Part shown: one piece after another, positions 51,207 through 64,000 of the stretch
Position numbering within the stretch: position 1 is the first letter of the stretch
Layout of the letters: the number at the start of each line of letters is the position of its first letter
Notes under the pieces: generated by a model
Told to the model about the DNA's origin: nothing
Seen by the model: the letters and a program-made list of their open reading frames with translations, nothing else
Databases searched by the model: none
Program-made: the position numbers and the translations under genes
Assembly: GCA_934700895.1 (NCBI GenBank)
Contig: CAKUXV010000001.1
Location: 269,289-333,288, forward strand
DNA from: an uncultured Bacilli bacterium
GTDB taxonomy: Bacteria > Bacillota_I > Bacilli_A > RFN20 > CAG-826
DNA length: 64,000 nt
Direction of reading: 5' to 3'

Positions 51207-51279
51207 GTTTAAAGCCCTTCTGATCTCAGGAGGGTTTTTCATTTGCAGGAAAAGAAAAACGGATACAATATGCCTGTTC

Positions 51280-52860
51280 ATGAAGAATCCCACGTTTTTT
51301 GCGGCCCATTATGACGTTATCGTCATCGGCGGGGCTTTGGCCGGCATGTCCGCGGCCATGGATTTGGCCCGCCACGGCAACAAGGTTTTGATTTTGGAAC
51401 GTCATAACCTCCCAGGAGGCGTGGCGACTAGCTTTGTCCGAAGCGGCGTGGAAATGGAAGCCACTCTTCACGAAATGATGTCGATCGGGCCCAAAGAAGC
51501 CCCATTATTTATTCGGGAATACCTAGAAGAAAATGGCTTGGATTTGAACTGGCTCCGCGTGCCGGAAGCCTATCGACTGTCCGCACCCGCCGATTCCATC
51601 GATATCACACTTCATGCCGGAAAAGACGAAGATGGCATCTTTCTCTGCGCCAAGGAAATCGAAAAGCAATATCCAGGCGAAGGGAAGAAAGCCGATGCGC
51701 TTTTGAAACTGTGCGAAAAGGTTTATGAAAGCGCCCGTTATTTTAACGACCATTCGCTTAGCAAAATCCAAACGATGATGGAGCATGAAGGGCTAGCCAA
51801 GACGGCGGGGTATTCGGCGAAAGAAGTACTGGATTGCTTTCAAATCTCTACCCCCGTCCAAAAGATTTTATCCGCCTATTGGATTTATGTGGGCGGCCCG
51901 ATGTCGGATATGCCTTTTGCAATCTATGCTTTTCTTATGGGGGATTATATGGTGGGAGGTGGCTACGTTCTTCGCGGCTTTTCCCACGAACTTGCCTGCG
52001 CCATGGCGAAAAAATGCGAGGAGCTTGGCGTTCAAATCGAATACGGCCAGGAAGTGGAAAAGATTTTAATCCGCGACGAGAAACGAAAGGACAAACGTCC
52101 CTCCGTCTATGGAGTCCGTACAAAGAGGGGAGATGAAATCCACACTCGATACGTCGTTTCCGCCCCCTATCAGGAAACGGTTTATAAGAAAATGGCGGAA
52201 CCCAAAAGCCTGGTGCCCAAGGATGCGTTCCGCTTGGTCAATTCTAGAAAGATGAACGTATCGACGTTCTCTCTCGTTTTGCGTTTAGAAGGGAAACCCG
52301 AGGACTATAACATCCACGATTATTCCGTGTTTTCCTGCGACTCCCCCATGGATAGTGATCGCTTCTTTGAAGAAGGAGAACAACTTGGAAACTGGGACTA
52401 TTTGGCGACCATTTGCCTGAACTACGCGAATCCCGATGGGGTCCCGGAAGGAACCACGTCTCTCGCCATTACGGCCATGCCCCTCCCGGAAGCGTTTTTT
52501 AACGTCGACGCGGATTCTTACCGCAAGGTGAAGCGGGAAATCGCAAGGCAAATGATCGAGACGGTTTCACGGCGTATTGGCGCGGATATATTCGGCCATA
52601 TTTTGGATATTGTGATCGAAACCCCGATGAGCGTTTATCGTTACATGAAAGATTATCGAGGCGGGGTATATGGATATCGCCACAGCATGTCGGATTCCAT
52701 TGTTTCCCGTCAAGGAGTCTATGCCAAAGAACATTATATTCATGGCTTAACTTGGGGAGCCGCTCATGCCCTGACTGGAGACGGGATGGCCGTCAACATC
52801 AATAACGGCCGCATCGCCGCCAAAATGATTGAAACGTGGCAAAAGGAGGACGCCCAATGA
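51280..52860 (+). CDS. NAD(P)/FAD-dependent oxidoreductase (phytoene-desaturase/amine-oxidase-like fold).
   Basis: N-terminal DVIVIGGALAGMSAAMDLARHGNKVLILE. The ORF's upstream extension to 51109 overlaps potD and was rejected. Confidence 0.7.
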   Translation: MKNPTFFAAHYDVIVIGGALAGMSAAMDLARHGNKVLILERHNLPGGVATSFVRSGVEMEATLHEMMSIGPKEAPLFIREYLEENGLDLNWLRVPEAYRLSAPADSIDITLHAGKDEDGIFLCAKEIEKQYPGEGKKADALLKLCEKVYESARYFNDHSLSKIQTMMEHEGLAKTAGYSAKEVLDCFQISTPVQKILSAYWIYVGGPMSDMPFAIYAFLMGDYMVGGGYVLRGFSHELACAMAKKCEELGVQIEYGQEVEKILIRDEKRKDKRPSVYGVRTKRGDEIHTRYVVSAPYQETVYKKMAEPKSLVPKDAFRLVNSRKMNVSTFSLVLRLEGKPEDYNIHDYSVFSCDSPMDSDRFFEEGEQLGNWDYLATICLNYANPDGVPEGTTSLAITAMPLPEAFFNVDADSYRKVKREIARQMIETVSRRIGADIFGHILDIVIETPMSVYRYMKDYRGGVYGYRHSMSDSIVSRQGVYAKEHYIHGLTWGAAHALTGDGMAVNINNGRIAAKMIETWQKEDAQ

Positions 52861-54032
52861 AATTCAAAGGCCTTTGGAAAGACGTCACGGGCTTTTTCCG
52901 CGTCAATAAATTAAGAAAGAACGCGATTAAAAATGCGTCGGCTTCTGAAAAATATTTGGACCCCATCGCCGAAGTAGCGAACGAACTCCACCCCGAGTAT
53001 TTGGATTTGGTCGTGACAAAGATCGAAGAAGAACCGCACGCCAAAAAGATGACCTTCGAAAGGACGGACGGCAAGAAACTTCCCCCATTTGACGCGGGAC
53101 AGTATGTCTCTTTGGCCTTAAAAATTGGCGACACGTTAACTACTAGACCCTATTCCGTTTGCAGCGCCCCCTTTGAAGCGCGTTTGGAGGAGCACCCCCA
53201 TATTTCAATTTGCGTGGTAAGAAAAGAAGATGGCTTTGCTTCTAAATTTCTTTGCGATTCGGTTTCTATCGGCGACCATTTTTCCGCTACTTTCCCTCTT
53301 GGGTTTTTCTACTTTGAACCATTAAGAGATTGCAAAAAAGTCGTGGCTTTAGCGGGAGGAAGCGGCATCACCCCCTTCTTGTCCATGGCCAAAGAAATTC
53401 GTCATGGAACCTTGGAGATGGACTTAACGATTCTATATGGTTCTTCCACCCCGCAAATGCTTTTGAAGCGGGAACTGGAGGATTGCGTCTGCGGCTCCCT
53501 CCGCCTAGTCCCCGTTATTTCTAATGATTCCAATTTTGAAGGAGAAAAAGGATTTTTAGACCGCGAGAAGATTCGTCGTTATTCCCAAGGCGAAGTTTCC
53601 TATTTTGCCTGTGGCCCCCAAGCGATGTATGAATTCGTCGAACGGGAATTAAGGGCTTTAAATATTCCAACCAAGCGAATTCGGATGGAAACGTTCGGTT
53701 CTCCCAAAGACATCGCCAAAGAAGAAGGTTATCCCCAAGGCGAGGAGAAGAAGTCCTTTCGGCTAACTGTCTATCGAGGAATCCATAAAGACGAAATCCC
53801 CGCTAAAGCTAATGAGCCCATTTTGGTTGCTTTAGAAAGAGCGGGCATTCCTTCTAACAGCCATTGCCGCAGCGGCGAATGCGGATTTTGCCGTTGCGAA
53901 CTCCTTTCCGGCTCTGTTTTTGTTCCGAAAAAAGGAGATGGCAGACGTTATAGCGACAAGACTTTTGGCTACGTCCACGCCTGCTCTGCTTACCCCTTAA
54001 GCGATCTCGAAATCCGCATTATCATTAAGTAG
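52857..54032 (+). CDS. Ferredoxin-NAD(P) reductase-like protein with a C-terminal plant-type 2Fe-2S ferredoxin domain.
   Basis: FAD-binding RPYS motif. NAD-binding GGSGITP. C-terminal CRSGECGFCRC. ATGA overlap with the upstream gene. Confidence 0.7.
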   Translation: MKFKGLWKDVTGFFRVNKLRKNAIKNASASEKYLDPIAEVANELHPEYLDLVVTKIEEEPHAKKMTFERTDGKKLPPFDAGQYVSLALKIGDTLTTRPYSVCSAPFEARLEEHPHISICVVRKEDGFASKFLCDSVSIGDHFSATFPLGFFYFEPLRDCKKVVALAGGSGITPFLSMAKEIRHGTLEMDLTILYGSSTPQMLLKRELEDCVCGSLRLVPVISNDSNFEGEKGFLDREKIRRYSQGEVSYFACGPQAMYEFVERELRALNIPTKRIRMETFGSPKDIAKEEGYPQGEEKKSFRLTVYRGIHKDEIPAKANEPILVALERAGIPSNSHCRSGECGFCRCELLSGSVFVPKKGDGRRYSDKTFGYVHACSAYPLSDLEIRIIIK

Positions 54033-54122: not shown

Positions 54123-55442
54123 ATGATTGCAAAAACAAAAGAAATCAAAGACATCGGCGGCCTGACAGATGAAAGAGAAACGGTGGTTTTGCCTCCGCCT
54201 CCCTTCGTCTACCTTGCGTTGGAAAACGCGCGTTGCCCCAAGGCGGAATGCACCGTCAAAGAAGGCGACCACGTCTATCTCCATCAACAAGTTGGACTCC
54301 GTCATGGCCCCTCTTTCGAAGAACCCATCCATTCCACGGTAAGCGGAACGGTGGTCGGCTTCGAAAAACGCTATCACCGCGCGGGCAAGATGGTGAATTA
54401 CATCAAAGTCGAAAATGACTTTAAGGACGAGAAGGATCCTAGCGTCTCTCCTCGTACCATGGAGCAAATCAAGACTCTCTCCTTTGACGACGCGGTGGAA
54501 ATCTTCAAGAACCGCTGCCTCGTGGGGCTTGGAGGATCTTCCTTCCCGACGTATGTGAAACTTCAATACGCCAAGGGCAAAAAGATCGACATGATCCTCA
54601 TCAATGCGATTGAGTGCGAGCCCTCCATCTCGGCGGATTATCGCTTGTTGGATGAAAAAGCGGACGACGTCCTTCGCGGCGTCCTTTGCCTCCAAAATCT
54701 CTTCCACTGCGGCGATGCGCGCATCTGCATCAAGAAGAAGCACGGCGAACTGATCGCCAAGCTTCAGGAAAAGATTGCCAAGGATTATCCGGGAAGCGGC
54801 ATCAGCGTCGACCCGATGCGCAACTATTATCCCCAAGGCTGGGAAATTGCGATGATTAAAGAAGCCACCCATGGCAAAGTGATCATCCCGCCCGGAAAGA
54901 AGGGGCTACCCCCGGATTACGGCATTTTCAATGTGAATGCCATGACCTGCGCTGGGGTTTGGTATGCCCTTGGCGACGACGAACCCGTTTATGAACGCTA
55001 TGTCACCGTCGCGGGAGACGGCATCAATAAGCCCGTCAACCTCGAAGTCCGCGTTGGCACTCCGATCACCGATTTGATCCAAGCTGCCGGCGGATACAAA
55101 GACGAATCGCCGAAGGTTTTAATCCTTGGCGGACCGATGATGGGCGCTGCTTTGCCTAGCGATGATGCTATCGCTACCAAGACCGTGACCTCGATCATCG
55201 TCGAAAACGCCAAAGAAAAGGAAGCAAAACCCTGCATCCATTGCGGATCCTGCGTTTATAGCTGCCCGACTCATCTCCAACCGGTTCTCATCATGGAAGC
55301 CGTCAAGAGCATGAACCGTGACCGCATCAAAATGCTCAACCCGCTCAACTGCATCGAATGTGGACTTTGCTCCTATTCCTGCACGTCCGGCATCGCCGTC
55401 ACCGATTTTGTAAGGAGGGCAAAGATCATCGCAAAACTTTGA
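54123..55442 (+). CDS. rnfC: Rnf complex subunit C (NADH-binding, 2x[4Fe-4S]).
   Basis: CIHCGSCVYSCP and CIECGLCSYSC motifs. GLGGSSFPT. Confidence 0.85.
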   Translation: MIAKTKEIKDIGGLTDERETVVLPPPPFVYLALENARCPKAECTVKEGDHVYLHQQVGLRHGPSFEEPIHSTVSGTVVGFEKRYHRAGKMVNYIKVENDFKDEKDPSVSPRTMEQIKTLSFDDAVEIFKNRCLVGLGGSSFPTYVKLQYAKGKKIDMILINAIECEPSISADYRLLDEKADDVLRGVLCLQNLFHCGDARICIKKKHGELIAKLQEKIAKDYPGSGISVDPMRNYYPQGWEIAMIKEATHGKVIIPPGKKGLPPDYGIFNVNAMTCAGVWYALGDDEPVYERYVTVAGDGINKPVNLEVRVGTPITDLIQAAGGYKDESPKVLILGGPMMGAALPSDDAIATKTVTSIIVENAKEKEAKPCIHCGSCVYSCPTHLQPVLIMEAVKSMNRDRIKMLNPLNCIECGLCSYSCTSGIAVTDFVRRAKIIAKL

Positions 55443-55452
55443 TCGTTTCATT

Positions 55453-56535
55453 ATGGAATTTGTCAAACAATCTGCGCCCCACATCAAAAGAAAGGACAAT
55501 TTGATGTGGATGCTGCTCAACGTGATCATCGCGTTGGCCCCCACGGCCATTTGGGCCTGGGTCGTCTCCCCGCTTGCTGCGCTTCGCATCTTCCCTCTTG
55601 CGATTGCCACTTGCCTCCTTTGCGAATTCCTCTTCGTCGTTATCACGAAGAAGGATCCCAAAGCCTTTAAGATCGAGAATATCCTCTCTTCGATCATTAC
55701 CGGCATGATTTATGGCCTTTGCCTCCCCACCGAAATGAGCTGGGGCAACGGCATGGGCTATGTCATCGTCATCTTCGGTGCCGCCATCGGCATCGTTCTT
55801 GGCAAACTCGTCTTCGGCGGGCTTGGCAACAACATCTTCAACCCCGCGGCCCTCGGCATGGTCGTTGTGCGCTTGTTCTGGGGCGGATTCTTATCCTCTT
55901 CCACCACGGGCACCGGCGGATTCATCGATGGGTCCATCGTGGCGGGCGGAACCTCGCTTTCTTATGGAGCGACCTATTCCAACATTGCTAACGCGGACTT
56001 CCTCGGCATGTTCTTAGGACGTGCTCCAGGCGCCTTAGGAGAAGGCTTCCACGTCGCAATCCTCGTGGGTCTTGCCTATCTTCTCATCACCCGCACCATC
56101 GATTGGCGCGTCTTTGTTTCCTATTTTGGAACCTTCGCCGTGTTGATGCTTGTGGCGGGAATTGTGGTCCAAACCCAACTCCCCACGGTCAATTGCGGAG
56201 CTTTCTTGCTCTATCAATTGCTCTCTGGCGGCATCCTCTTCGGCGCGGTCTTCATGATCACCGACCCGGTAACCGGACCGATGGGCGGGCCGAACCGCGT
56301 CCTATTCGGCATCTTCGGCGGGTTCATGGCCGTCCTCATCCGTATCGTGTTGAAGACGGAAGGGGTCGCCTATTCGATCCTGTTCGCCAACATGATTGCC
56401 CCGGTTCTCGATTATCCTTCTTGGTCCTCTTCGACCTGGAAGAAGCACCATTTCATCTCCGCCGGTATCATCGGCGTGTTTGGAATCTTGCTCGTTGTGC
56501 TCGTCTTACTCTTTAAGGAAGGAGCCATCGCATGA
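55453..56535 (+). CDS. rnfD: Rnf complex subunit D.
   Basis: Polytopic NqrB/RnfD-like protein in the canonical operon position. Confidence 0.85.
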   Translation: MEFVKQSAPHIKRKDNLMWMLLNVIIALAPTAIWAWVVSPLAALRIFPLAIATCLLCEFLFVVITKKDPKAFKIENILSSIITGMIYGLCLPTEMSWGNGMGYVIVIFGAAIGIVLGKLVFGGLGNNIFNPAALGMVVVRLFWGGFLSSSTTGTGGFIDGSIVAGGTSLSYGATYSNIANADFLGMFLGRAPGALGEGFHVAILVGLAYLLITRTIDWRVFVSYFGTFAVLMLVAGIVVQTQLPTVNCGAFLLYQLLSGGILFGAVFMITDPVTGPMGGPNRVLFGIFGGFMAVLIRIVLKTEGVAYSILFANMIAPVLDYPSWSSSTWKKHHFISAGIIGVFGILLVVLVLLFKEGAIA

Positions 56536-58040
56536 ACAAATACGTTAAATCTCCATTAGTTCTCGGCTGCATCTGCGTATGCTCTGCAGGACTCATCGGC
56601 GGGCTTCACCTTGTGGCAAAAAAATACGCGGAAGCGCATAAATCCACCGAAGCCCCGAAAGAAATTCAATCTTTAAAAGCGGGCGCCACCTTTGTAGAAG
56701 TTGCCGATTTCAAACCGACTTCCTTCACGGGGGATGCCTCCAAAGTTACCATCGAAAGCGTCTATGAGATGCAAGAAGGCGGAAAGCGTACGGGCTATGC
56801 CTATTCCGTCAATTGCGGCAAGCCGGCTAAAACCGACGTCACCTTCACGGTCGCTTTTGAAGGAGAAGTGAGCGAATCCACCGTCGCCCAACTCAAACCG
56901 ATCGCCATCAACGTCACTTCCGGCGGCGACGCAGGATATGACGCCAACACGGTTTCCTATGCTCAAGGAATCGTCGATGGCTCCAAGCAATTCAACGATG
57001 CTAACGACATCGTAAGTGGCGGAACCAAATCCCAAAAATTCCTTCGCGACGGCTTAACCGCTGCCCGTACGGATTATTTGGCCCGTTATAACGGTACTGC
57101 TCCGACTCCACAACCGACCGATGAAACCCTCGTTTACTTCCAAAAGATGTATCCGACGTTACAAAGCTATTCGCAAGATGAGGACTTCTCGCCCCTCAGC
57201 GTTTCTAGCGATCATAACGGTAAAGCCAAGATCGAGAAGCGTTATCGCGCAGAAGTCGATGGCAAGGTTGTCTTCTTCTACGAAGGCAAAGGAACCATCC
57301 AAGTCTCCGATTATGGCGAAAACAACACGGCTTCTGTCGACCTCTTCGTCGCCTTCGACGCGGAAGTCACCGATTCCAACTTGAAACAAGTCGCCCCGTC
57401 GAAATACACGATTGTTTCCTGCGACTTCTCTTATTCGCAATGGGAAGGCTATATGGAAGAAATCATCGCTGGCAGCAAAACCATTAATTCCAGCTCGGAC
57501 ATTTCCACTGGTGCCACACGTTCTTGCTTGCTGCTGCAAAGAATGATGATTAAGATGCGCAGCGATTATCACACGACTCGTCTCGCCGAAATCAAAGCCG
57601 GCGTCGGCGGAGCCGTTTCGAAAATCTTCTCCGCGGATGCCACTTACGAAGAAGACGACGCGTTTGCCGTCGTTGAGACGGAAGACTATTCCATTTCGAA
57701 GCTTTACACGGTTGCCTTAAGCGAAACCGAAACCGCGAAGCTCTATCTTGGAACCGCCCAAGCCGCGATTGAAGCGGATGGCACCATCTCCAAGATCACG
57801 CTCTACGTCGGATTCTCGGGAACCGCGGAATCGGAAGCAAATGTCCACATTGCTGGGTATTCCGAAGTTTCCTCCAATGGTTTCGACCAATGGAAAGGCT
57901 TTATGGATGGGCTATCCGATGGCTCGAAGTCCCTTGATAATGACGGGGACATCGCCACCGGCGCCACCCATTCCACCCGTGCCGTCCGCGACATGGTCAA
58001 AGGCATGAGAAGCCATTACTTCTCGTCCTTATCCAAATGA
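56532..58040 (+). CDS. rnfG: Rnf complex subunit G, expanded to 502 aa with three tandem FMN-binding repeats.
   Basis: N-terminal anchor. Repeats end in DIVSGGTKS, DISTGATRS and DIATGATHS, which resemble the RnfG/NqrC flavinylation motif D-x-SGAT-x-T/S. Confidence 0.75.
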   Translation: MNKYVKSPLVLGCICVCSAGLIGGLHLVAKKYAEAHKSTEAPKEIQSLKAGATFVEVADFKPTSFTGDASKVTIESVYEMQEGGKRTGYAYSVNCGKPAKTDVTFTVAFEGEVSESTVAQLKPIAINVTSGGDAGYDANTVSYAQGIVDGSKQFNDANDIVSGGTKSQKFLRDGLTAARTDYLARYNGTAPTPQPTDETLVYFQKMYPTLQSYSQDEDFSPLSVSSDHNGKAKIEKRYRAEVDGKVVFFYEGKGTIQVSDYGENNTASVDLFVAFDAEVTDSNLKQVAPSKYTIVSCDFSYSQWEGYMEEIIAGSKTINSSSDISTGATRSCLLLQRMMIKMRSDYHTTRLAEIKAGVGGAVSKIFSADATYEEDDAFAVVETEDYSISKLYTVALSETETAKLYLGTAQAAIEADGTISKITLYVGFSGTAESEANVHIAGYSEVSSNGFDQWKGFMDGLSDGSKSLDNDGDIATGATHSTRAVRDMVKGMRSHYFSSLSK

Positions 58041-58055
58041 AAGGAGTGATGCAAA

Positions 58056-58829
58056 ATGGCTAAAGAAAATACTTCCAAAAGATCGCGCATCTTCTTGGAC
58101 CCCTTGCTGAAGGCCAACCCCTTGTTCGTCATGGTCCTCGGCACCTGTCCTGCTCTTGCGGTTACGACTTCGTTTGAATCCGCGATTGGCATGGGCCTCC
58201 TCTTCACTTTCGTCGTTTTCTTCTCCAACCTCTTGATTTCCGCCTTACGGAAAGTCATCCCGGAAGAAGTAGAAACCCCAGCTTACATCGTAATCATCGC
58301 GACCTTCGTCACGATTGTTAAGATCCTCACCTCGACGTTCTTGCCTGAACTCTATAACAGCCTTGGCGTCTTCGTTTCCTTGCTCGTTGTCAACTGCATC
58401 GTTCTCGGCCGTGCCGAGGCCTTCGCCAACAAAAACAGCGTTGTGGATTCGATGCTCGACGGCCTTGGAAATGGCCTTGGCTATACTTGGGCCATCGCCG
58501 TCATCGCGCTCTTCCGCGAAGTCGTCGGCGCCGGTACTCTCACCTTTGGCAAAACCTTTACCTTCATTCCCCAAATCACCATCCCCATTTTGGGCGGATT
58601 CAAGGGAACGAATTTCTCCCTTGCCATCCCGCTATTTAAATCCTCCGCCGGTGGTTTCTTGGTGCTAGGATTCGCCCTTGCCATCCTTGCCGCGGTCAAT
58701 AACCACAAGAAGCACAAAGCCCAAGAGGCGTTAAAAGCCCAAAAGGCCAAAGAAGCGGAAGCGCGCAAAGCGGCCCTCGCCGCCAAAGCCGCCGCTAAGC
58801 CCGCTACGGTTGCAGAAGGAGGTAAATAA
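58056..58829 (+). CDS. rnfE: Rnf complex subunit E, with a roughly 45-aa Ala/Lys-rich C-terminal tail.
   Basis: MVLGTCPALAVTT...VVNCIVLGRAEAFA. Tail AQEALKAQKAKEAEARKAALAAKAAAKPA. Confidence 0.8.
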   Translation: MAKENTSKRSRIFLDPLLKANPLFVMVLGTCPALAVTTSFESAIGMGLLFTFVVFFSNLLISALRKVIPEEVETPAYIVIIATFVTIVKILTSTFLPELYNSLGVFVSLLVVNCIVLGRAEAFANKNSVVDSMLDGLGNGLGYTWAIAVIALFREVVGAGTLTFGKTFTFIPQITIPILGGFKGTNFSLAIPLFKSSAGGFLVLGFALAILAAVNNHKKHKAQEALKAQKAKEAEARKAALAAKAAAKPATVAEGGK

Positions 58830-58831
58830 GC

Positions 58832-59434
58832 ATGCCTTACATCGTTTCATTCTTGCTTGCCATCGTTTCTTACACGGTGATCGATAACGTCATTCTCTCG
58901 CGTTATTTTGGTATCTGCTCGTTTGTTGGCGTTGGCAACAAGGTTAAATCCGCCGTCGGCATGGGAGCCGCTGTCACCTTCGTCACGATGATGGCCGCCC
59001 TTGTTTGCTGGCCGATCTTCAATTACATCCTCGTCCCCGCTGGCATGGAATACATGGAGACCATCGTCTTCATCCTTGTCATCGCTTCCTTGGTCCAGAT
59101 GGTTGGTTATTTCATCAAGAAAACCTCGCCCTCTCTTTACAAGACCCTTGGTATCTATCTTCCCTTGATCACGACTAACTGCGCCGTTCTCGGCGTCGTT
59201 GAGACGAACATGACCTATGACTTCGGTCGTTCCATGGCTAACGCCCTTGGCACTTCCTTGGGCTTCGTCCTCGTCATCTTCCTCTTCGCCTGCATCCGCG
59301 TGAAACTTGAAGGCAACGACCTCCCCAAAGCGTTTAAAGGCGTTCCTATCGCCTTAATCGTCGCGGGCATCATGGCCGTTATCTTCATGGGCCTCGGCGG
59401 CATGGTTGACCTTGGCTCTTGGGGCATTGCCTAA
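58832..59434 (+). CDS. rnfA: Rnf complex subunit A.
   Basis: RnfA/NqrE-like, six TM helices, TNCAVLGV. Confidence 0.85.
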   Translation: MPYIVSFLLAIVSYTVIDNVILSRYFGICSFVGVGNKVKSAVGMGAAVTFVTMMAALVCWPIFNYILVPAGMEYMETIVFILVIASLVQMVGYFIKKTSPSLYKTLGIYLPLITTNCAVLGVVETNMTYDFGRSMANALGTSLGFVLVIFLFACIRVKLEGNDLPKAFKGVPIALIVAGIMAVIFMGLGGMVDLGSWGIA

Positions 59435-59682
59435 TGAGCAAAGGCGGGTATATCGCCCTCGCCGTCGTCCTCGTTGTTGCTCTTGTCGCCATCTTCACCG
59501 TCAGCTTCGTCCTTTACGTCAAAACTCCGCCCCCCAAGGGCTGTGAGCGGCAAAAAGGCGGAGCACAATGTGAGAATTGCGAGCAATCGAGCTGCAAATT
59601 CTACGAGGCCGCCATGGCGAAAGCCGCTAAAAAAGAAGAAGAAAAGAAAGCGGAAGAAGAAACTTCCGAGAAAGGAAATTGA
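59434..59682 (+). CDS. Small membrane protein with a C-x8-C-x2-C-x4-C motif inside the rnf operon, followed by an acidic/basic tail.
   Basis: Start overlaps the rnfA stop (TAATGA). One TM helix, then CERQKGGAQCENCEQSSC. Confidence 0.45.
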   Translation: MSKGGYIALAVVLVVALVAIFTVSFVLYVKTPPPKGCERQKGGAQCENCEQSSCKFYEAAMAKAAKKEEEKKAEEETSEKGN

Positions 59683-60002
59683 ATATGGATATTTTGTGGG
59701 CCGTCCTCTTGATGGCGGGATTAGCCGTCATCCTCGCTCTGCTTATCGTCCTTTTCTCCAATATCTTCCACGTGGAAGAAGACCCCCGCATCGCGGCGGT
59801 CGAAAAGATGCTCCCCAATTACAATTGCGGCGCCTGCGGATATGCGGGCTGCCACGATTTGGCGGAAGCTCTTGTTAACGGAGAAGTCAAAAAGGTCAGC
59901 CAGTGCAAAGCGGGCAAGAAGGACAAGAACTTCGACCCGATTGCCGAATATTTGAATTCGACGCCGGGACCCGACGGAAACACCCTTCACGTTAATCCTT
60001 AA
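59679..60002 (+). CDS. rnfB: Truncated RnfB: N-terminal TM helix plus the first Cys4 cluster only, with no ferredoxin domains.
   Basis: LPNYNCGACGYAGCHDLAEALVNGEVKKVSQC is the canonical RnfB N-terminal motif. The ORF ends after 107 aa. Confidence 0.6.
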   Translation: MNMDILWAVLLMAGLAVILALLIVLFSNIFHVEEDPRIAAVEKMLPNYNCGACGYAGCHDLAEALVNGEVKKVSQCKAGKKDKNFDPIAEYLNSTPGPDGNTLHVNP

Positions 60003-60017
60003 GAAGATGCCACTTCG

Positions 60018-61103
60018 GTGGCATTTTCTTTTACTCTTTTCTATAATTCCTGCGTGAAAAATTCTCGTTGTTTGTATTTAACTTCCACCCTCCTATTAAC
60101 GGGCCTACTCCCCTTGACGGGCTGCTCTACCAATCCCAGCGATTTCTCCTCGGAATCCGAAGATTTTTATGGGGCGAGTGGTTACGCTTTTCATAGTTTC
60201 TTTTCCTTTTCTTATAATTCCAACCAAGGCTCGATCGATGACCAAATCACTTCCTTCTTGGATAAGATGGATGATTTAGCGGACCCCTATAACGCCGTTC
60301 AAGGAAAATCGAACCTGTATACGATCAATAACACCCATCTCCCCGTGAAGGTAGATGAGGATTTATTCGACCTTGTTAAAACTTCCCTCGAACTCGAAAA
60401 AAAGACGGAGGGCTATTTTAACCCCCTAATCGGGGCGATTTCCCTAGAATGGAAGGAAATCCTTCAATCCCAAGAAGAAGTGCTAGAAACGGATATAAAG
60501 GCCTTAGAAGGCCGTTTGCCGGCGTTGCTCGAGCAAATGAATGCCTCGGAACTTGTTTTAAACGAAGAAGAACATTCCATTCAACGTGTGGGGGATGCCA
60601 AAATCGACCTCGGCGGATTGGTGAAAGGTTATTGCGTAGAACGCGTCCAGCAGATGGTTTTAGCCTGCGGGGCCACCCGTTATCTCATTAACGGGGGTAC
60701 GTCTTCGTTATCCCTTGGCAAAACCAAAAGTGGCGAGCCCTATCGCGTAAGCCTTCGCGATTCTAAAACCCCCAAGGAAAATTATTTCTCTCTCCATGAC
60801 GTGGACACCTCGACTTCCGGGATTTATGAGCAGATGATCCGCGTGGGCGAAACGACTTATTCCCACGTGATTAATCCCAAGACCGGCATGGCGGTTTCTC
60901 CTTTTTCGATGGCTTTGCTTGTCGGAGATGATTCCGCTCTTCTCGATGCTTTCTCCACTTCCTGCATGATCGCAGGAAAAGAAAAGGCCAAAGAATGGAG
61001 TCAAACCTATTCTTTCTCCTATTCTTTATATGAAGATGACGGGGGATATACAAAGCTGGTCGAAGAATCACCTGAACTAACCAAGGTGAGAATCTCCGCT
61101 TAA
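60018..61103 (+). CDS. apbE: FAD:protein FMN transferase (ApbE family) lipoprotein.
   Basis: Lipobox LTGC. ApbE-like core (GGLVKGY..., PKTGMAV). Immediately downstream of the rnf genes. Confidence 0.8.
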   Translation: MAFSFTLFYNSCVKNSRCLYLTSTLLLTGLLPLTGCSTNPSDFSSESEDFYGASGYAFHSFFSFSYNSNQGSIDDQITSFLDKMDDLADPYNAVQGKSNLYTINNTHLPVKVDEDLFDLVKTSLELEKKTEGYFNPLIGAISLEWKEILQSQEEVLETDIKALEGRLPALLEQMNASELVLNEEEHSIQRVGDAKIDLGGLVKGYCVERVQQMVLACGATRYLINGGTSSLSLGKTKSGEPYRVSLRDSKTPKENYFSLHDVDTSTSGIYEQMIRVGETTYSHVINPKTGMAVSPFSMALLVGDDSALLDAFSTSCMIAGKEKAKEWSQTYSFSYSLYEDDGGYTKLVEESPELTKVRISA

Positions 61104-61173: not shown

Positions 61174-62697
61174 TTACTTCGCGGCTTTGTTGTAGGCGTT
61201 GACGAGAAGGTCGACGTAGGAAACATAGCCAGAAGCAGGTTTGGAGTTGAGGTCGGTCCAGGTGGCGCCGATCTTAACGTCTTCATCATCCGAGTTCTTG
61301 ACAACCCATTGATTGTCTTGGCCACGGACAGAGGCTTGCATGGCTTCCGGTCCATATTGGACGAAGGCGCCGACGGTCTTGTCGCGGTTGGTCTTCCAAT
61401 CGAATTTGGTTCCGCCATAGCCGTTCTCTTCTTTGTTGAGTTTGGCATGGCCAACGTTCTGGTTGCCCGTGGAGAGCACAAGGGTGACGCCATCGTTCAT
61501 GACGGCATTGTAGTAAGCTTCGCAGACTTCTTCTTTGGAGAAATCAGCACCTTCGTATTTGAAGGATTTGTTCGCGGCATCATAAGCACCGGTGAGGGTG
61601 TAGTCGCCGAATTTGACGGTCTTGTAATAGACGTTGTTGACTTCGGCGTTGTGGCTAATGACGATCGCTTCGATATAGTCGGAAGCGGCAAGAGTGGCTT
61701 TTTCTTCATCGGAAACGGTGAGGGAGGTCGGCAATTCGACTTCGTGGAGGTTCGCACCGAGGAGGGTGATTTCATTGGTGTGAGTGGTGTAATTCATCGA
61801 GGAGACGAGTTCGACATCGGCCGCGCCAACGTAGGATCCACCGTGGACGAGGGCAAAGGCTTTGCCGGTCTTGTAAGCATCAACAAAGTTGACGTTGACG
61901 GTGACATCGTTCTTCGGCATGACGAAGGAACCGGTGGTCTTCATCGTGTTGTTGATGGAGGCTTCGAGGGTGTTGTTGACGAGGGTGAGGCCTTCGCTGG
62001 CGGCGCTGTATTTGTAGACGCCTTCGTGGAAGTTCTCAAGATCTTCACCTTGGATGAGCCAGGAAGCGAGGGATCCTTCGAGGATTTCGACTTCGTGGGT
62101 GCCCTTGGCGGAGAAGTAGGCATCGATGTTGGTGCCAGTCTTCGCGTTGACCCATTCTTCGGTGTCCATATCGAATTTCTTGACTTCAGTGGTCGTGTTC
62201 GTGACATTCAAGGTAACCTTGTGGGTCTTGCCACCCGTGACGGCTTTGGAATAAGCCTTGATGGTCGGGGCAGTCTTGGTCATGTTGAAGCTGACGTATT
62301 TGACGCCTTCCATGTTGAGTTCACCGCCATAGCAATTGAACTTCATGCCAGCAGCGCCAACTTGGGCTTCGTACTTCGTGCCATCGATGTCGATGTAGTC
62401 GAGTTCGTTCGCGCCAGAGAAGGACGGGACGAGGTAGACTTTCTCATTCACCTTCGGAGTGTAGATGTAAGCTCCGGAATAGGTGTCGGTGAAGGTCGAG
62501 ACGCCAAGGAGGTTCGGCATCGTGTAGTCGACGATGAGACCGCCATAGACGGAGGCACCAATATCGACGCCGGTGTTCGAATCGGCGGTGTCTTTACTAG
62601 CCGTGTCTTTGCTGTTGTCGGAAGAGGTTCCGCCACCGCAAGAAGCAAGCAACGCCGCCGAAGCGAGGACGAGAACCAATTTTTTGGATTGAATCAT
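61174..62697 (-). CDS. Thr/Val/Asn-rich lipoprotein of unknown function.
   Basis: Lipobox LLASCGGG with a Ser/Asp tether. The plus-strand ORF 61309-62703 is its antisense shadow. Confidence 0.55.
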   Translation of the reverse strand: MIQSKKLVLVLASAALLASCGGGTSSDNSKDTASKDTADSNTGVDIGASVYGGLIVDYTMPNLLGVSTFTDTYSGAYIYTPKVNEKVYLVPSFSGANELDYIDIDGTKYEAQVGAAGMKFNCYGGELNMEGVKYVSFNMTKTAPTIKAYSKAVTGGKTHKVTLNVTNTTTEVKKFDMDTEEWVNAKTGTNIDAYFSAKGTHEVEILEGSLASWLIQGEDLENFHEGVYKYSAASEGLTLVNNTLEASINNTMKTTGSFVMPKNDVTVNVNFVDAYKTGKAFALVHGGSYVGAADVELVSSMNYTTHTNEITLLGANLHEVELPTSLTVSDEEKATLAASDYIEAIVISHNAEVNNVYYKTVKFGDYTLTGAYDAANKSFKYEGADFSKEEVCEAYYNAVMNDGVTLVLSTGNQNVGHAKLNKEENGYGGTKFDWKTNRDKTVGAFVQYGPEAMQASVRGQDNQWVVKNSDDEDVKIGATWTDLNSKPASGYVSYVDLLVNAYNKAAK

Positions 62698-62797
62698 TTT
62701 TGATTTCCTTTCATTTCCACATCATTAGGATTGTGGGCTTGCCTATTATGCGTTTTTTCGTTTCGCCCTTCAAGGGCTGTACATGCTTTTTTGTATA

Positions 62798-62826
62798 ACA
62801 AAAGGCTGGGAATGCGTTCCCAGCCT
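62798..62826 (-). terminator. Rho-independent terminator of the thioesterase gene.
   Basis: On the minus strand: GGCTGGGAA-cgca-TTCCCAGCC followed by TTTTGTT. Confidence 0.6.
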
Positions 62827-62838
62827 TGCCTTGTTGAT

Positions 62839-63543
62839 TTACCGATACTCCAATCGGATTTGGAAATGGTCGCTTTCGAAGTCGCAACGAGAGTCGAAAA
62901 TCCCGTATTGAATGGGCGCGGATTCTCCTAATGGAATCTCTTTTTTGTAGGAGACGTTAATCGAAGCGCATTCATGGTTTTTAAGATAATCGATGGGAAT
63001 TAAGTCCTGAACGCAATCGAAATAGAAGGTGTTGTTGAGGTGGCCGTTGATGTCGCAACGGCTATATGTCGCCTCGATTTTGGCTTCTAAAGGCAATTCT
63101 TCCTTGAAGGAGTAGGAGGGTGGGAATTCGATCTGGCCCTCCATGGAATCGCAAGGGACTTCGATCCCGTAATGGGATGGATCGATCATCTTTCGATTAT
63201 TTTTGTCAATCAACGCCCAAACCGCGACGCCTTTTATTAGGACTTCCCCACTAGTAGAGAGGATGCGGTAATGACGCAAGAAGAAGGACATAAGACGCTT
63301 TCCGGGGTAGGTTTGCACCTCGATTTCCTCGTCGTATCGCGGCATGCGGGCAATCTGAAAATATTGTTTTCCGATGACCCATAATAAGCCCCGATCAAAA
63401 GTCTTTGTGTGGTCATAACCCAAATCTTCCACCGCGTGGATCGCGGCTTCTTGCGTCAAGCGCATAAGAGAAGAGAGACGAATCTCCTGGCGGGGATCGC
63501 ACTCGGCGGTTTTCAAAACTGTTTTAAAGGAATACAGGTGCAT
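62839..63543 (-). CDS. Acyl-ACP thioesterase.
   Basis: N-terminal YSFKTVLKTAECDPRQEIRLSSLMRLTQEAA...FDRGLLWVI is typical of the acyl-ACP thioesterase (FatA/B-like) family. Confidence 0.7.
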   Translation of the reverse strand: MHLYSFKTVLKTAECDPRQEIRLSSLMRLTQEAAIHAVEDLGYDHTKTFDRGLLWVIGKQYFQIARMPRYDEEIEVQTYPGKRLMSFFLRHYRILSTSGEVLIKGVAVWALIDKNNRKMIDPSHYGIEVPCDSMEGQIEFPPSYSFKEELPLEAKIEATYSRCDINGHLNNTFYFDCVQDLIPIDYLKNHECASINVSYKKEIPLGESAPIQYGIFDSRCDFESDHFQIRLEYR

Positions 63544-63544
63544 G

Positions 63545-63802
63545 TTATTTCTTCTTTGCTAATTCGATTTCGCACGCGTCTAGAAGCGCGCCAAGAGTCG
63601 TGAGTTTCTTCCATTTTTTCTGGGGAATCGTGATGTCGAGTTCCTCTTCGATGGAACAAATGATGTAGGTGACGGTCATGGAATCGAGACCCCCATCCGC
63701 ATTGATGCAATCGTCTTCGTGAATCCCATTTTCCTCAAACTGAGGCAACGAGGCTTTCGCGATGATATTGATTTTCTCTTTGATTTCTTCTCTTGTTAAC
63801 AT
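63545..63802 (-). CDS. Acyl-carrier-protein-like protein.
   Basis: 85 aa, acidic. GLDSMT phosphopantetheine-attachment-like motif. AGGAG ribosome-binding site. Confidence 0.55.
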   Translation of the reverse strand: MLTREEIKEKINIIAKASLPQFEENGIHEDDCINADGGLDSMTVTYIICSIEEELDITIPQKKWKKLTTLGALLDACEIELAKKK

Positions 63803-63813
63803 ATTGGAAACTC

Positions 63814-64000
63814 CTAATTTTGTTCGGTGTTGATTTGATAACGTTTGATTTTTCCCGTCGCGGTGCGAGGGAAGGGGTGATTTAAAACGAATAAGCGGGA
63901 AATGCGGGCACTGCGGGGATGATGCAAATTGAATTCGTTGAGCTTGTCCACGATTCCTTCGACGTTACGCTCCAGCGCCAAAATCAATTGACCTTTGCGG
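63814..64000 (-). CDS. AMP-dependent acyl-CoA/ACP synthetase, C-terminal fragment. The gene continues beyond the window.
   Basis: The minus-strand translation ends ...HPFPRTATGKIKRYQINTEQN*, the conserved C-terminal motif of adenylate-forming ligases. Confidence 0.5.
   Translation of the reverse strand, partial: RKGQLILALERNVEGIVDKLNEFNLHHPRSARISRLFVLNHPFPRTATGKIKRYQINTEQN

Follow-up and report, generated by a model that had tools for sequence, protein, structure and literature searches.

The 64,000-nucleotide stretch of DNA analyzed here, henceforth the window, stems from an uncultured Bacilli bacterium of the gut (contig CAKUXV010000001.1 of assembly GCA_934700895.1) and contains an operon for an Rnf complex in the order rnfC-D-G-E-A-[small gene]-B, followed by apbE (Table 1). 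All six Rnf subunit genes (C, D, E, A, B and, weakly, G) were matched in Pfam and NCBIfam profile scans, and cofactor motifs are present as well. Judged by sequence, RnfC, RnfD, RnfG, RnfE and RnfA are canonical and the remainder of the complex is intact. Two features of the operon stand out. Its last gene, rnfB, encodes a minimal RnfB, and a gene for a small cysteine-rich membrane protein, here called rnfX, is inserted between rnfA and rnfB, with a start that overlaps the rnfA stop (TAATG) and a stop that lies 2 nt before the rnfB start.

The initial annotation of the window had described an RnfB that comprises the transmembrane (TM) helix and the first Cys cluster, lacks the poly-ferredoxin domains and stops at 107 aa. 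The domain composition and the early stop are borne out, while the length has to be corrected. The 107-aa open reading frame (ORF) starts from TTG 59679, but database homologues begin at ATG 59685 (P0001, 100% identity) and the length is therefore likely 105 aa; an exact-sequence look-up returned no record for the TTG form, the ATG form being the one on record. The sole Pfam domain is PF04060 (residues 45-77, E 1.1e-12, 47.8 bits versus a cut-off of 23), and no Fer4-type domain was detected in the Pfam scan. The NCBIfam RnfB/RsxB models are matched over the first ~90 of their 190-293 positions only. The protein scores 63.4 bits on TIGR01944, just under the cut-off of 68.7, and far below the cut-offs of all equivalog models. 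The cluster ligands C48, C51, C56 and C74 are invariant in 75 aligned sequences, and the homologue alignment reveals a conserved, clade-specific C-terminal tail (CKxGKKDKNFDPIxxYLxxHPxPDG). The AlphaFold2 (AF2) model is confident, with a predicted local distance difference test (pLDDT) value of 89. Its N-terminal hydrophobic helix (pLDDT at least 89) can be aligned with the TM segment in 7zc6_B and 9eri_B, and the protein as a whole corresponds to residues ~4-79 of the RnfB chains in 7zc6, 9eri and 8ahx, which in the solved structures comprise 174-333 aa. We found no in-frame continuation 3' of rnfB, as the initial annotation had advised to check; a hairpin and its T tract come immediately after the stop codon, and the next ORF is that for ApbE. 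A CxxCxxCxxxCP motif is not present within the window outside of RnfC. According to a recent review, RnfB has three parts. Next to the TM helix there is a small [4Fe-4S] domain on a flexible tether, which is blurred in all maps from cryo-electron microscopy and acts as a shuttle delivering electrons to the intramembrane [2Fe-2S] cluster of RnfA/E. The C-terminal domain, in which 2-7 [4Fe-4S] clusters are bound, is the acceptor for electrons from ferredoxin (PMC12174285, 2025). As the C-terminal ferredoxin domain is missing, the RnfB encoded in the window is, by its sequence, composed of the membrane anchor and the shuttle domain only, which places it outside the 2-7-cluster range of the characterized subunits.

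The initial annotation was also right about the presence of an 82-aa protein with one TM helix and a distinct Cys motif between RnfA and RnfB: we confirmed the ORF, the hydrophobic helix and the motif (C37-x8-C46-x2-C49-x4-C54). The sources label such proteins as hypothetical, none of the family members is assigned to a Pfam or NCBIfam family, and no family was found for the window protein in Pfam, NCBIfam or PDB sequence searches. When the 82-aa protein alone served as the query, a homology search returned near-identical proteins only, and the family was therefore recovered via synteny and then with profiles. A full profile search among 1.84 billion representatives gave 209 members, all of them 49-101 aa in length and none fused to another protein. 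In family alignments of 47, 68 and 146 members, the last three cysteines, spaced as C-x2-C-x3-13-C with x4 as the common case, are either invariant or conserved to more than 90%, and the first one (P-x-G-C-E context, C37 in the window protein) is present in most, not all members. The full set of a TM helix and four cysteines occurs in the window protein and in 66 of 77 loci, versus 11 loci with three cysteines. The C-terminal tails are of low complexity and vary widely in length. AF2 predicts a helix for residues 3-30 with high confidence. The positive-inside rule points to an N-out/C-in orientation like that of RnfB, which would place the Cys loop on the cytoplasmic side, ~8 residues from the membrane.

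Profile-profile comparison provides a clue to the origin of the small protein. When its family was compared with the RnfB N-terminus by hhalign, the probability was 82% in the first comparison and 91.5% in a later one (E 8.6e-7, 57 columns), the TM helix and C-x2-C-x4-C of the family being paired with the RnfB N-terminus and the PF04060 cluster loop. Besides, a few single members weakly match PF04060 and TIGR01944 (rnfB). The family thus probably, though this is not proven, goes back to a partial duplication of rnfB, which would make the small protein a copy of the N-terminal part of RnfB that has since diverged. Its loop looks like that of RnfB, with the same C-x2-C-x4-C spacing and the fourth ligand moved upstream.

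Table 1. Genes and other features of the rnf region in the window. Positions are counted from the first nucleotide of the window.
Feature	Position	Strand	Description
Promoter-like site	51242-51269		upstream of the reductase pair
FAD-dependent oxidoreductase	51280-52860	+	CrtI/amine-oxidase-like
FNR-type reductase	52857-54032	+	PaaE/phthalate-dioxygenase-reductase-like; FAD_binding_6, NAD_binding_1, Fer2 (C-terminal 2Fe-2S)
rnfC	54123..55442	+	full length, 439 aa; NADH/FMN module and 2x[4Fe-4S]; Pfam RnfC_N, Complex1_51K, SLBB, Fer4
rnfD	55453..56535	+	360 aa; PF03116 (E 1.8e-67); TIGR01946
rnfG, enlarged	56532..58040	+	502 aa; N-terminal anchor and three FMN_bind-like repeats; weak matches to PF04205 and TIGR01947
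rnfE	58056..58829	+	257 aa; PF02508 (E 3.4e-57); NF009070 RsxE, 225 bits, above cut-off; two conserved Cys in LGTCPAL and VVNCIVLG
rnfA	58832..59434	+	200 aa; PF02508 (E 8.3e-52); TIGR01943; conserved Cys in FGICSF and TTNCAVLG
Small Rnf-associated gene, rnfX	59434..59682	+	82 aa; ATG 59434; TM helix, PPPKGC, C-x8-C-x2-C-x4-C, Lys/Glu-rich tail
Minimal rnfB	59685..60002	+	105 aa; TM helix 2-27, PF04060 [4Fe-4S] domain, tail helix 79-92, without ferredoxin domain
Intrinsic-terminator-like hairpin	60001..60030	+	13-bp stem, T tract; closes the rnf operon
Promoter-like site	60018-60047		upstream of apbE
apbE, flavin transferase lipoprotein	60054..61103	+	PF02424 (E 1.6e-44); lipobox LTGC; start uncertain

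Neither the short RnfB nor the small gene is restricted to the organism from which the window stems. A homology search with RnfB yielded 271 homologues, and the 120 of them listed with lengths and domains all have 96-139 aa and PF04060 only. Those that bear a name are recorded either as "electron transporter RnfB" or as "(Fe-S)-binding protein", with "Bacilli bacterium" or Candidatus Enteromonas as the source. A scan at the species level with one genome per species gave ~580 loci with a relative of RnfB. Among the best 80, which we inspected, RnfB has 100-141 aa in all cases save one, a 56-aa protein with a miscalled start. The hosts are RF39-like "Bacilli", Erysipelotrichaceae including Faecalibacillus, Coprobacillus and Erysipelothrix, Acholeplasmataceae including the cultured Paracholeplasma vituli, Anaeroplasmataceae, Mariniplasma and the Izemoplasma-like "Tenericutes bacterium MO-XQ". 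In the relatives examined the gene order is the same, and a small gene (an ORF of 50-90 aa with a TM helix and the Cys motif) resides between rnfA and rnfB in 79 of 79 informative loci: the automatic screen detected it in 77 of 80, L078 was added by eye, the gene is frameshifted in L081, and L062 starts at a contig edge. The same context of the small gene is found in distant loci from Acholeplasmataceae. The small gene and the short rnfB are conserved across hundreds of divergent genomes and thus far beyond chance. Short RnfB plus small gene is the standard arrangement of a large Bacilli clade that spans several orders and is related to the wall-less lineages. The initial annotation had named relatives with such a standard arrangement and a well-characterized partner as grounds for refutation; the former applies, but a characterized partner does not exist.

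Some members of the clade feature further peculiarities. In a sub-lineage represented by L035 (3522-3788), L030, L034, L036, L038, L040 and L064, the gene at the rnfC position is situated directly after purB and encodes a mere 82-109 aa. These correspond to the 2x[4Fe-4S] dicluster at the C-terminus, with Fer4 as the sole Pfam domain, and the NADH/FMN module is missing. As RnfB is short as well, both cytoplasmic modules of Rnf are minimal in this sub-lineage. A 934-aa GltD-like Fe-S/NAD(P)H oxidoreductase encoded 3' of rnfB in L035 was considered as a partner of this mini-RnfC and dismissed for lack of conservation in the other loci of this kind. The operons from Acholeplasmataceae contain an additional gene between rnfG and rnfE that encodes 324-466 aa without any Pfam match (L091, 3340-4740; L092, 3736-4710).

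In the literature we searched on Rnf in Acholeplasma, Mollicutes, Tenericutes and RF39, no description of the short RnfB or the small gene was found. In the paper on Peloplasma aerotolerans, the accessions listed for the Rnf genes skip positions 239 and 242, and the operon is stated there to have the clostridial rnfCDGEAB structure. The skipped positions fit the additional gene that follows rnfG and the small one that precedes rnfB. Méheust et al. define RNF via RnfB (K03616), and the retrieved passages of their work mention neither a short RnfB nor the small gene (Méheust et al., 2021; PMC8238504). It thus seems that the arrangement has escaped notice and has not been explained. As RnfB stays below the TIGR01944 cut-off and the small gene has no name, pipelines and papers miss RnfB or take the operons for ordinary rnfCDGEAB. 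Rule-based pipelines may call such an Rnf "incomplete" with RnfB missing or name the protein just "(Fe-S)-binding protein". The arrangement is real and conserved, and within the searched literature it is undescribed; it is a variant of Rnf and not a new kind of system, and the basic chemistry probably remains ferredoxin:NAD+ oxidoreduction.

How would electrons enter such a complex? The reading we favor, with a probability of about one half, is that of a streamlined but functional Rnf, i.e. a ferredoxin:NAD+ oxidoreductase ion pump, with a two-piece electron-entry port that would be typical of Mollicutes-related Bacilli. The small protein would most likely hold an Fe-S centre close beneath the membrane, at a distance of a few residues, or form a docking site. 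It would thereby serve as a fixed membrane-proximal station or dock and the minimal RnfB as a swinging [4Fe-4S] domain, both together making up the port. Soluble reduced ferredoxin or flavodoxin, charged by PFOR or hydrogenase, would deliver electrons directly, without a built-in polyferredoxin wire. From there they could proceed via the [2Fe-2S] cluster of RnfA/E, the FMN of RnfG, the flavins of RnfD and RnfC to NAD+, coupled to the export of Na+ or H+; electron flow in the reverse direction would also be possible. Relatives encode PFOR and [FeFe]-hydrogenases (PMC7301438, PMC11122141), which implies a ferredoxin pool and makes an ordinary ferredoxin the simplest donor, in preference to the different donor that the initial annotation had considered. 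More tentatively, we propose that the small protein is a seventh Rnf subunit, derived from a partial rnfB duplication and equipped with an Fe-S centre of its own, that forms the entry port with the one-cluster RnfB and so replaces the polyferredoxin domain. The initial annotation had already suggested a remodelled electron-entry module, and we likewise favor one; the arrangement recurs in several orders and is not peculiar to the window genome.

Several points weigh against a two-piece port. The Cys region of the small protein has pLDDT values of 46-57 and no confident fold in the AF2 model, which would fit a cofactor-dependent or partner-dependent fold. The first cysteine is replaced in ~15-25% of the family and a four-Cys cluster is therefore not universal. 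The hhalign similarity to RnfB is short and driven partly by the TM helix and the cysteines. The co-occurrence of the small gene and short RnfB may stem from a single ancestral event and for this reason carries little statistical weight. Fe-S binding by the small protein and its place in the mature complex are inferred from sequence features. It is also conceivable that the minimal RnfB works alone, its PF04060 domain accepting electrons directly, and that the small protein is free for another role.

One such role, unlikely in our view though it fares best among the alternatives, is that of an Rnf-specific maturation factor that supplies either RnfA/E or the minimal RnfB with Fe or Fe-S, while RnfB accepts electrons from ferredoxin unaided. 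The model for it is NqrM, a protein with a single TM helix and four cysteines, the gene of which adjoins apbE in the nqr operon, and needed for the insertion of the intramembrane Fe-S centre of NqrD/E (PMC12174285, PMC6209661). The two proteins share their architecture, consisting of a TM helix, a basic segment next to the membrane, G-x-C, 8-11 spacer residues, C-x(1-2)-C-x(3-4)-C and a charged tail, the NqrM side of this comparison being an NqrM-like consensus that we composed and that scores 85.5 bits on PF04400. A transient carrier could be expected to have a Cys region that appears unstructured in the AF2 model, and weak matches to PF12669, a further family of small, "iron-associated", Cys-rich membrane proteins, were obtained for 56 of 146 family members. 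On the other hand, PF04400 was not among the families reported when 47 (E <= 10) and 146 (E <= 1) members were scanned, and hhalign to the NqrM-like consensus gave 51% probability over the TM helix and the first Cys only. As this comparison is weak, we do not claim homology to NqrM. The spacing of the cysteines differs as well. The first cysteine of NqrM is reportedly the essential one, as Kostyrko et al. are said to have found in 2016, and here it is the sole variable one, which is the opposite pattern. Furthermore, the gene is situated between two structural genes, adjoining rnfB, and not after apbE, and to our knowledge canonical Rnf complexes require no such maturation factor.

Still less probable is a non-redox accessory function, be it as a Zn-binding or structural single-TM peptide that steadies the minimal RnfB after loss of the docking domain or as a regulator. 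Small single-TM peptides commonly stabilize membrane complexes, and the invariance of only three cysteines, the Cys region without a confident fold and the variable, low-complexity tails are all in line with such a function. Nevertheless, the C-x2-C-x4-C spacing is that of the PF04060 cluster-binding loop, with which it is aligned, and a cytoplasmic site beside Fe-S partners makes Fe-S more natural than Zn.

A third possibility concerns the two reductase genes upstream of rnfC, which the initial annotation had deemed potentially relevant. They overlap by 4 nt and are located directly upstream of rnfC on the same strand. No + strand terminator was detected between them and rnfC and a promoter-like site precedes them, so they may be co-transcribed with rnf in the window species. 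The pair might replace the missing ferredoxin domain by providing an NqrF-like, NAD(P)H-driven entry, in analogy to the evolution of Nqr from Rnf. Indeed, FAD_binding_6, NAD_binding_1 and Fer2 constitute the domain set of NqrF, and NqrF has been described as a monooxygenase reductase that belongs to the FNR family and was acquired (PMC12174285). We nonetheless consider this entry route highly improbable. Among the 80-odd loci, the pair adjoins rnf only in L001-L004, that is in the window species, and was not detected in L011, where RnfB is 96% identical and the locus would cover at most part of the respective position, nor in any other locus. Such species-specific adjacency makes it unlikely that the pair is part of the system, in contrast to the minimal RnfB and the small protein, which occur throughout the clade. 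In addition, the reductase lacks a TM anchor and has its domains in the opposite order to those of NqrF, and RnfC already holds a complete NADH site. The pair was therefore rejected as an Rnf partner; possibly, it is a lipid or isoprenoid desaturase system.

Finally, the idea that rnfB is a truncated pseudogene or the product of a sequencing or assembly error, for which nothing speaks beyond the unusual length and the sub-threshold TIGR01944 score, can practically be dismissed, because the gene is identical, and the layout the same, in at least four independent ENA metagenome assemblies of the species (neighbour proteins 99-100% identical where checked), which excludes a read or assembly error, hundreds of homologues have equal length and the conserved C-terminal tail, and a terminator directly follows the stop codon.

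The other genes of the operon require brief comment. RnfC scores 316.7 bits on TIGR01945, above the cut-off, and its two Cys motifs are located at residues 370 and 409. With 502 aa, RnfG is much longer than the usual ~180-200 aa; most relatives have 178-198 aa, and 490-496 aa are found in L007/L008 and L035. The aligned ends of its three repeats, DIVSGGTKS (162), DISTGATRS (326) and DIATGATHS (476), are flavinylation-type motifs. For apbE, three start candidates exist, 60018, 60054 and 60072. The GTG at 60018 falls within the hairpin of the rnfB terminator, while GTG 60054 (MKNSRCLYLTSTLLLTGLLPLTGC) or TTG 60072 leads to a normal lipoprotein signal peptide. In the relative L002, the apbE gene call begins at the equivalent of 60072. 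In most relatives (L005-L010, L092), the genes that come after apbE encode a protein with a NusG_II domain and a membrane protein of PF07456 (Hpre_diP_synt_I). The window instead contains, at 61174-63987 on the - strand, genes for a 507-aa lipoprotein, an acyl-ACP (acyl carrier protein) thioesterase, an ACP-like protein of 85 aa and an AMP-binding enzyme.

Rnf is among the enzymes that are central to energy conservation in anaerobes, and electron entry into the complex is poorly resolved. A natural one-domain RnfB with a tiny partner means that the polyferredoxin wire is dispensable across an entire clade. Specialists may be surprised by both the dispensable ferredoxin-accepting domain and the unnamed seventh gene fixed in the operon. 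The minimal RnfB is also a simpler object for structural and kinetic work, for which cultured members such as Paracholeplasma vituli are at hand. The clade includes abundant gut lineages of humans and animals (RF39, Erysipelotrichaceae), the energy metabolism of which is inferred from annotations of the kind discussed above. If the small protein does prove to be a seventh subunit, the entire Erysipelotrichales/Acholeplasmatales/RF39/Izemoplasmatales radiation would have an Rnf subtype of its own, and together with the mini-RnfC sub-lineage this would reveal a minimal energy-converting Rnf core with plug-in cytoplasmic partners.

Among known systems, canonical RnfB/RsxB (TIGR01944, K03616; 7zc6_B, 9eri_B, 8ahx_B) resembles the minimal RnfB in the TM helix, PF04060 with C-x2-C-x4-C-x16-C, the linker helix and its encoding by the last gene of the rnfCDGEA(B) operon. 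The minimal RnfB stops where the ferredoxin domain of the canonical protein starts and contains zero further clusters versus 2-7. Unlike the latter, it carries a conserved clade-specific tail (KNFDPIxxYLxxxPxxDG) and is always accompanied by the extra small gene. RNF clusters with multi-flavinylated RnfG, comparable to the three-repeat RnfG of the window, have been reported by Méheust et al. (2021; PMC8238504). The window protein fits this class by sequence, and such an RnfG may supply an extracytosolic acceptor. NqrM (PF04400/DUF539) is similar to the small protein in having one TM helix, a G-x-C next to the membrane, three more cysteines and a charged tail and in being encoded within an Rnf/Nqr-type pump operon near apbE. 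A significant sequence match between the two was not obtained, and they differ in Cys spacing and in the pattern of Cys conservation. Moreover, the small gene lies between rnfA and rnfB, upstream of apbE, in Rnf-containing organisms, whereas the nqrM gene follows apbE in NQR-containing ones. Likewise tiny, with a TM helix and a Cys cluster, are the FeoB-associated Cys-rich membrane proteins of PF12669, to which 27 of 47 and the above-mentioned 56 of 146 family members exhibit weak matches (best E 1e-6, most sub-threshold). The window protein itself does not match PF12669, and the genes reside in rnf operons and not next to feoB. An ORF after feoB in L007 was discarded as a candidate relative; it has a single Cys that is in no such motif.

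The closest structural counterpart of the soluble domain of the minimal RnfB is the N-terminal [4Fe-4S] domain of the large subunit of the corrinoid iron-sulfur protein CFeSP (4djd_C, 2ycl_A), which also belongs to PF04060 and was the best match in a Foldseek search (probability 1.00, root-mean-square deviation 1.3-2.8 Å, 52-58 columns). In CFeSP, this domain is a mobile stand-alone acceptor of electrons from external donors. Although CFeSP, unlike the minimal RnfB, is a soluble methyl-transfer protein without a TM helix and has no relation to Rnf, it would, by analogy, provide a precedent for a PF04060 domain that functions as a stand-alone mobile electron acceptor.

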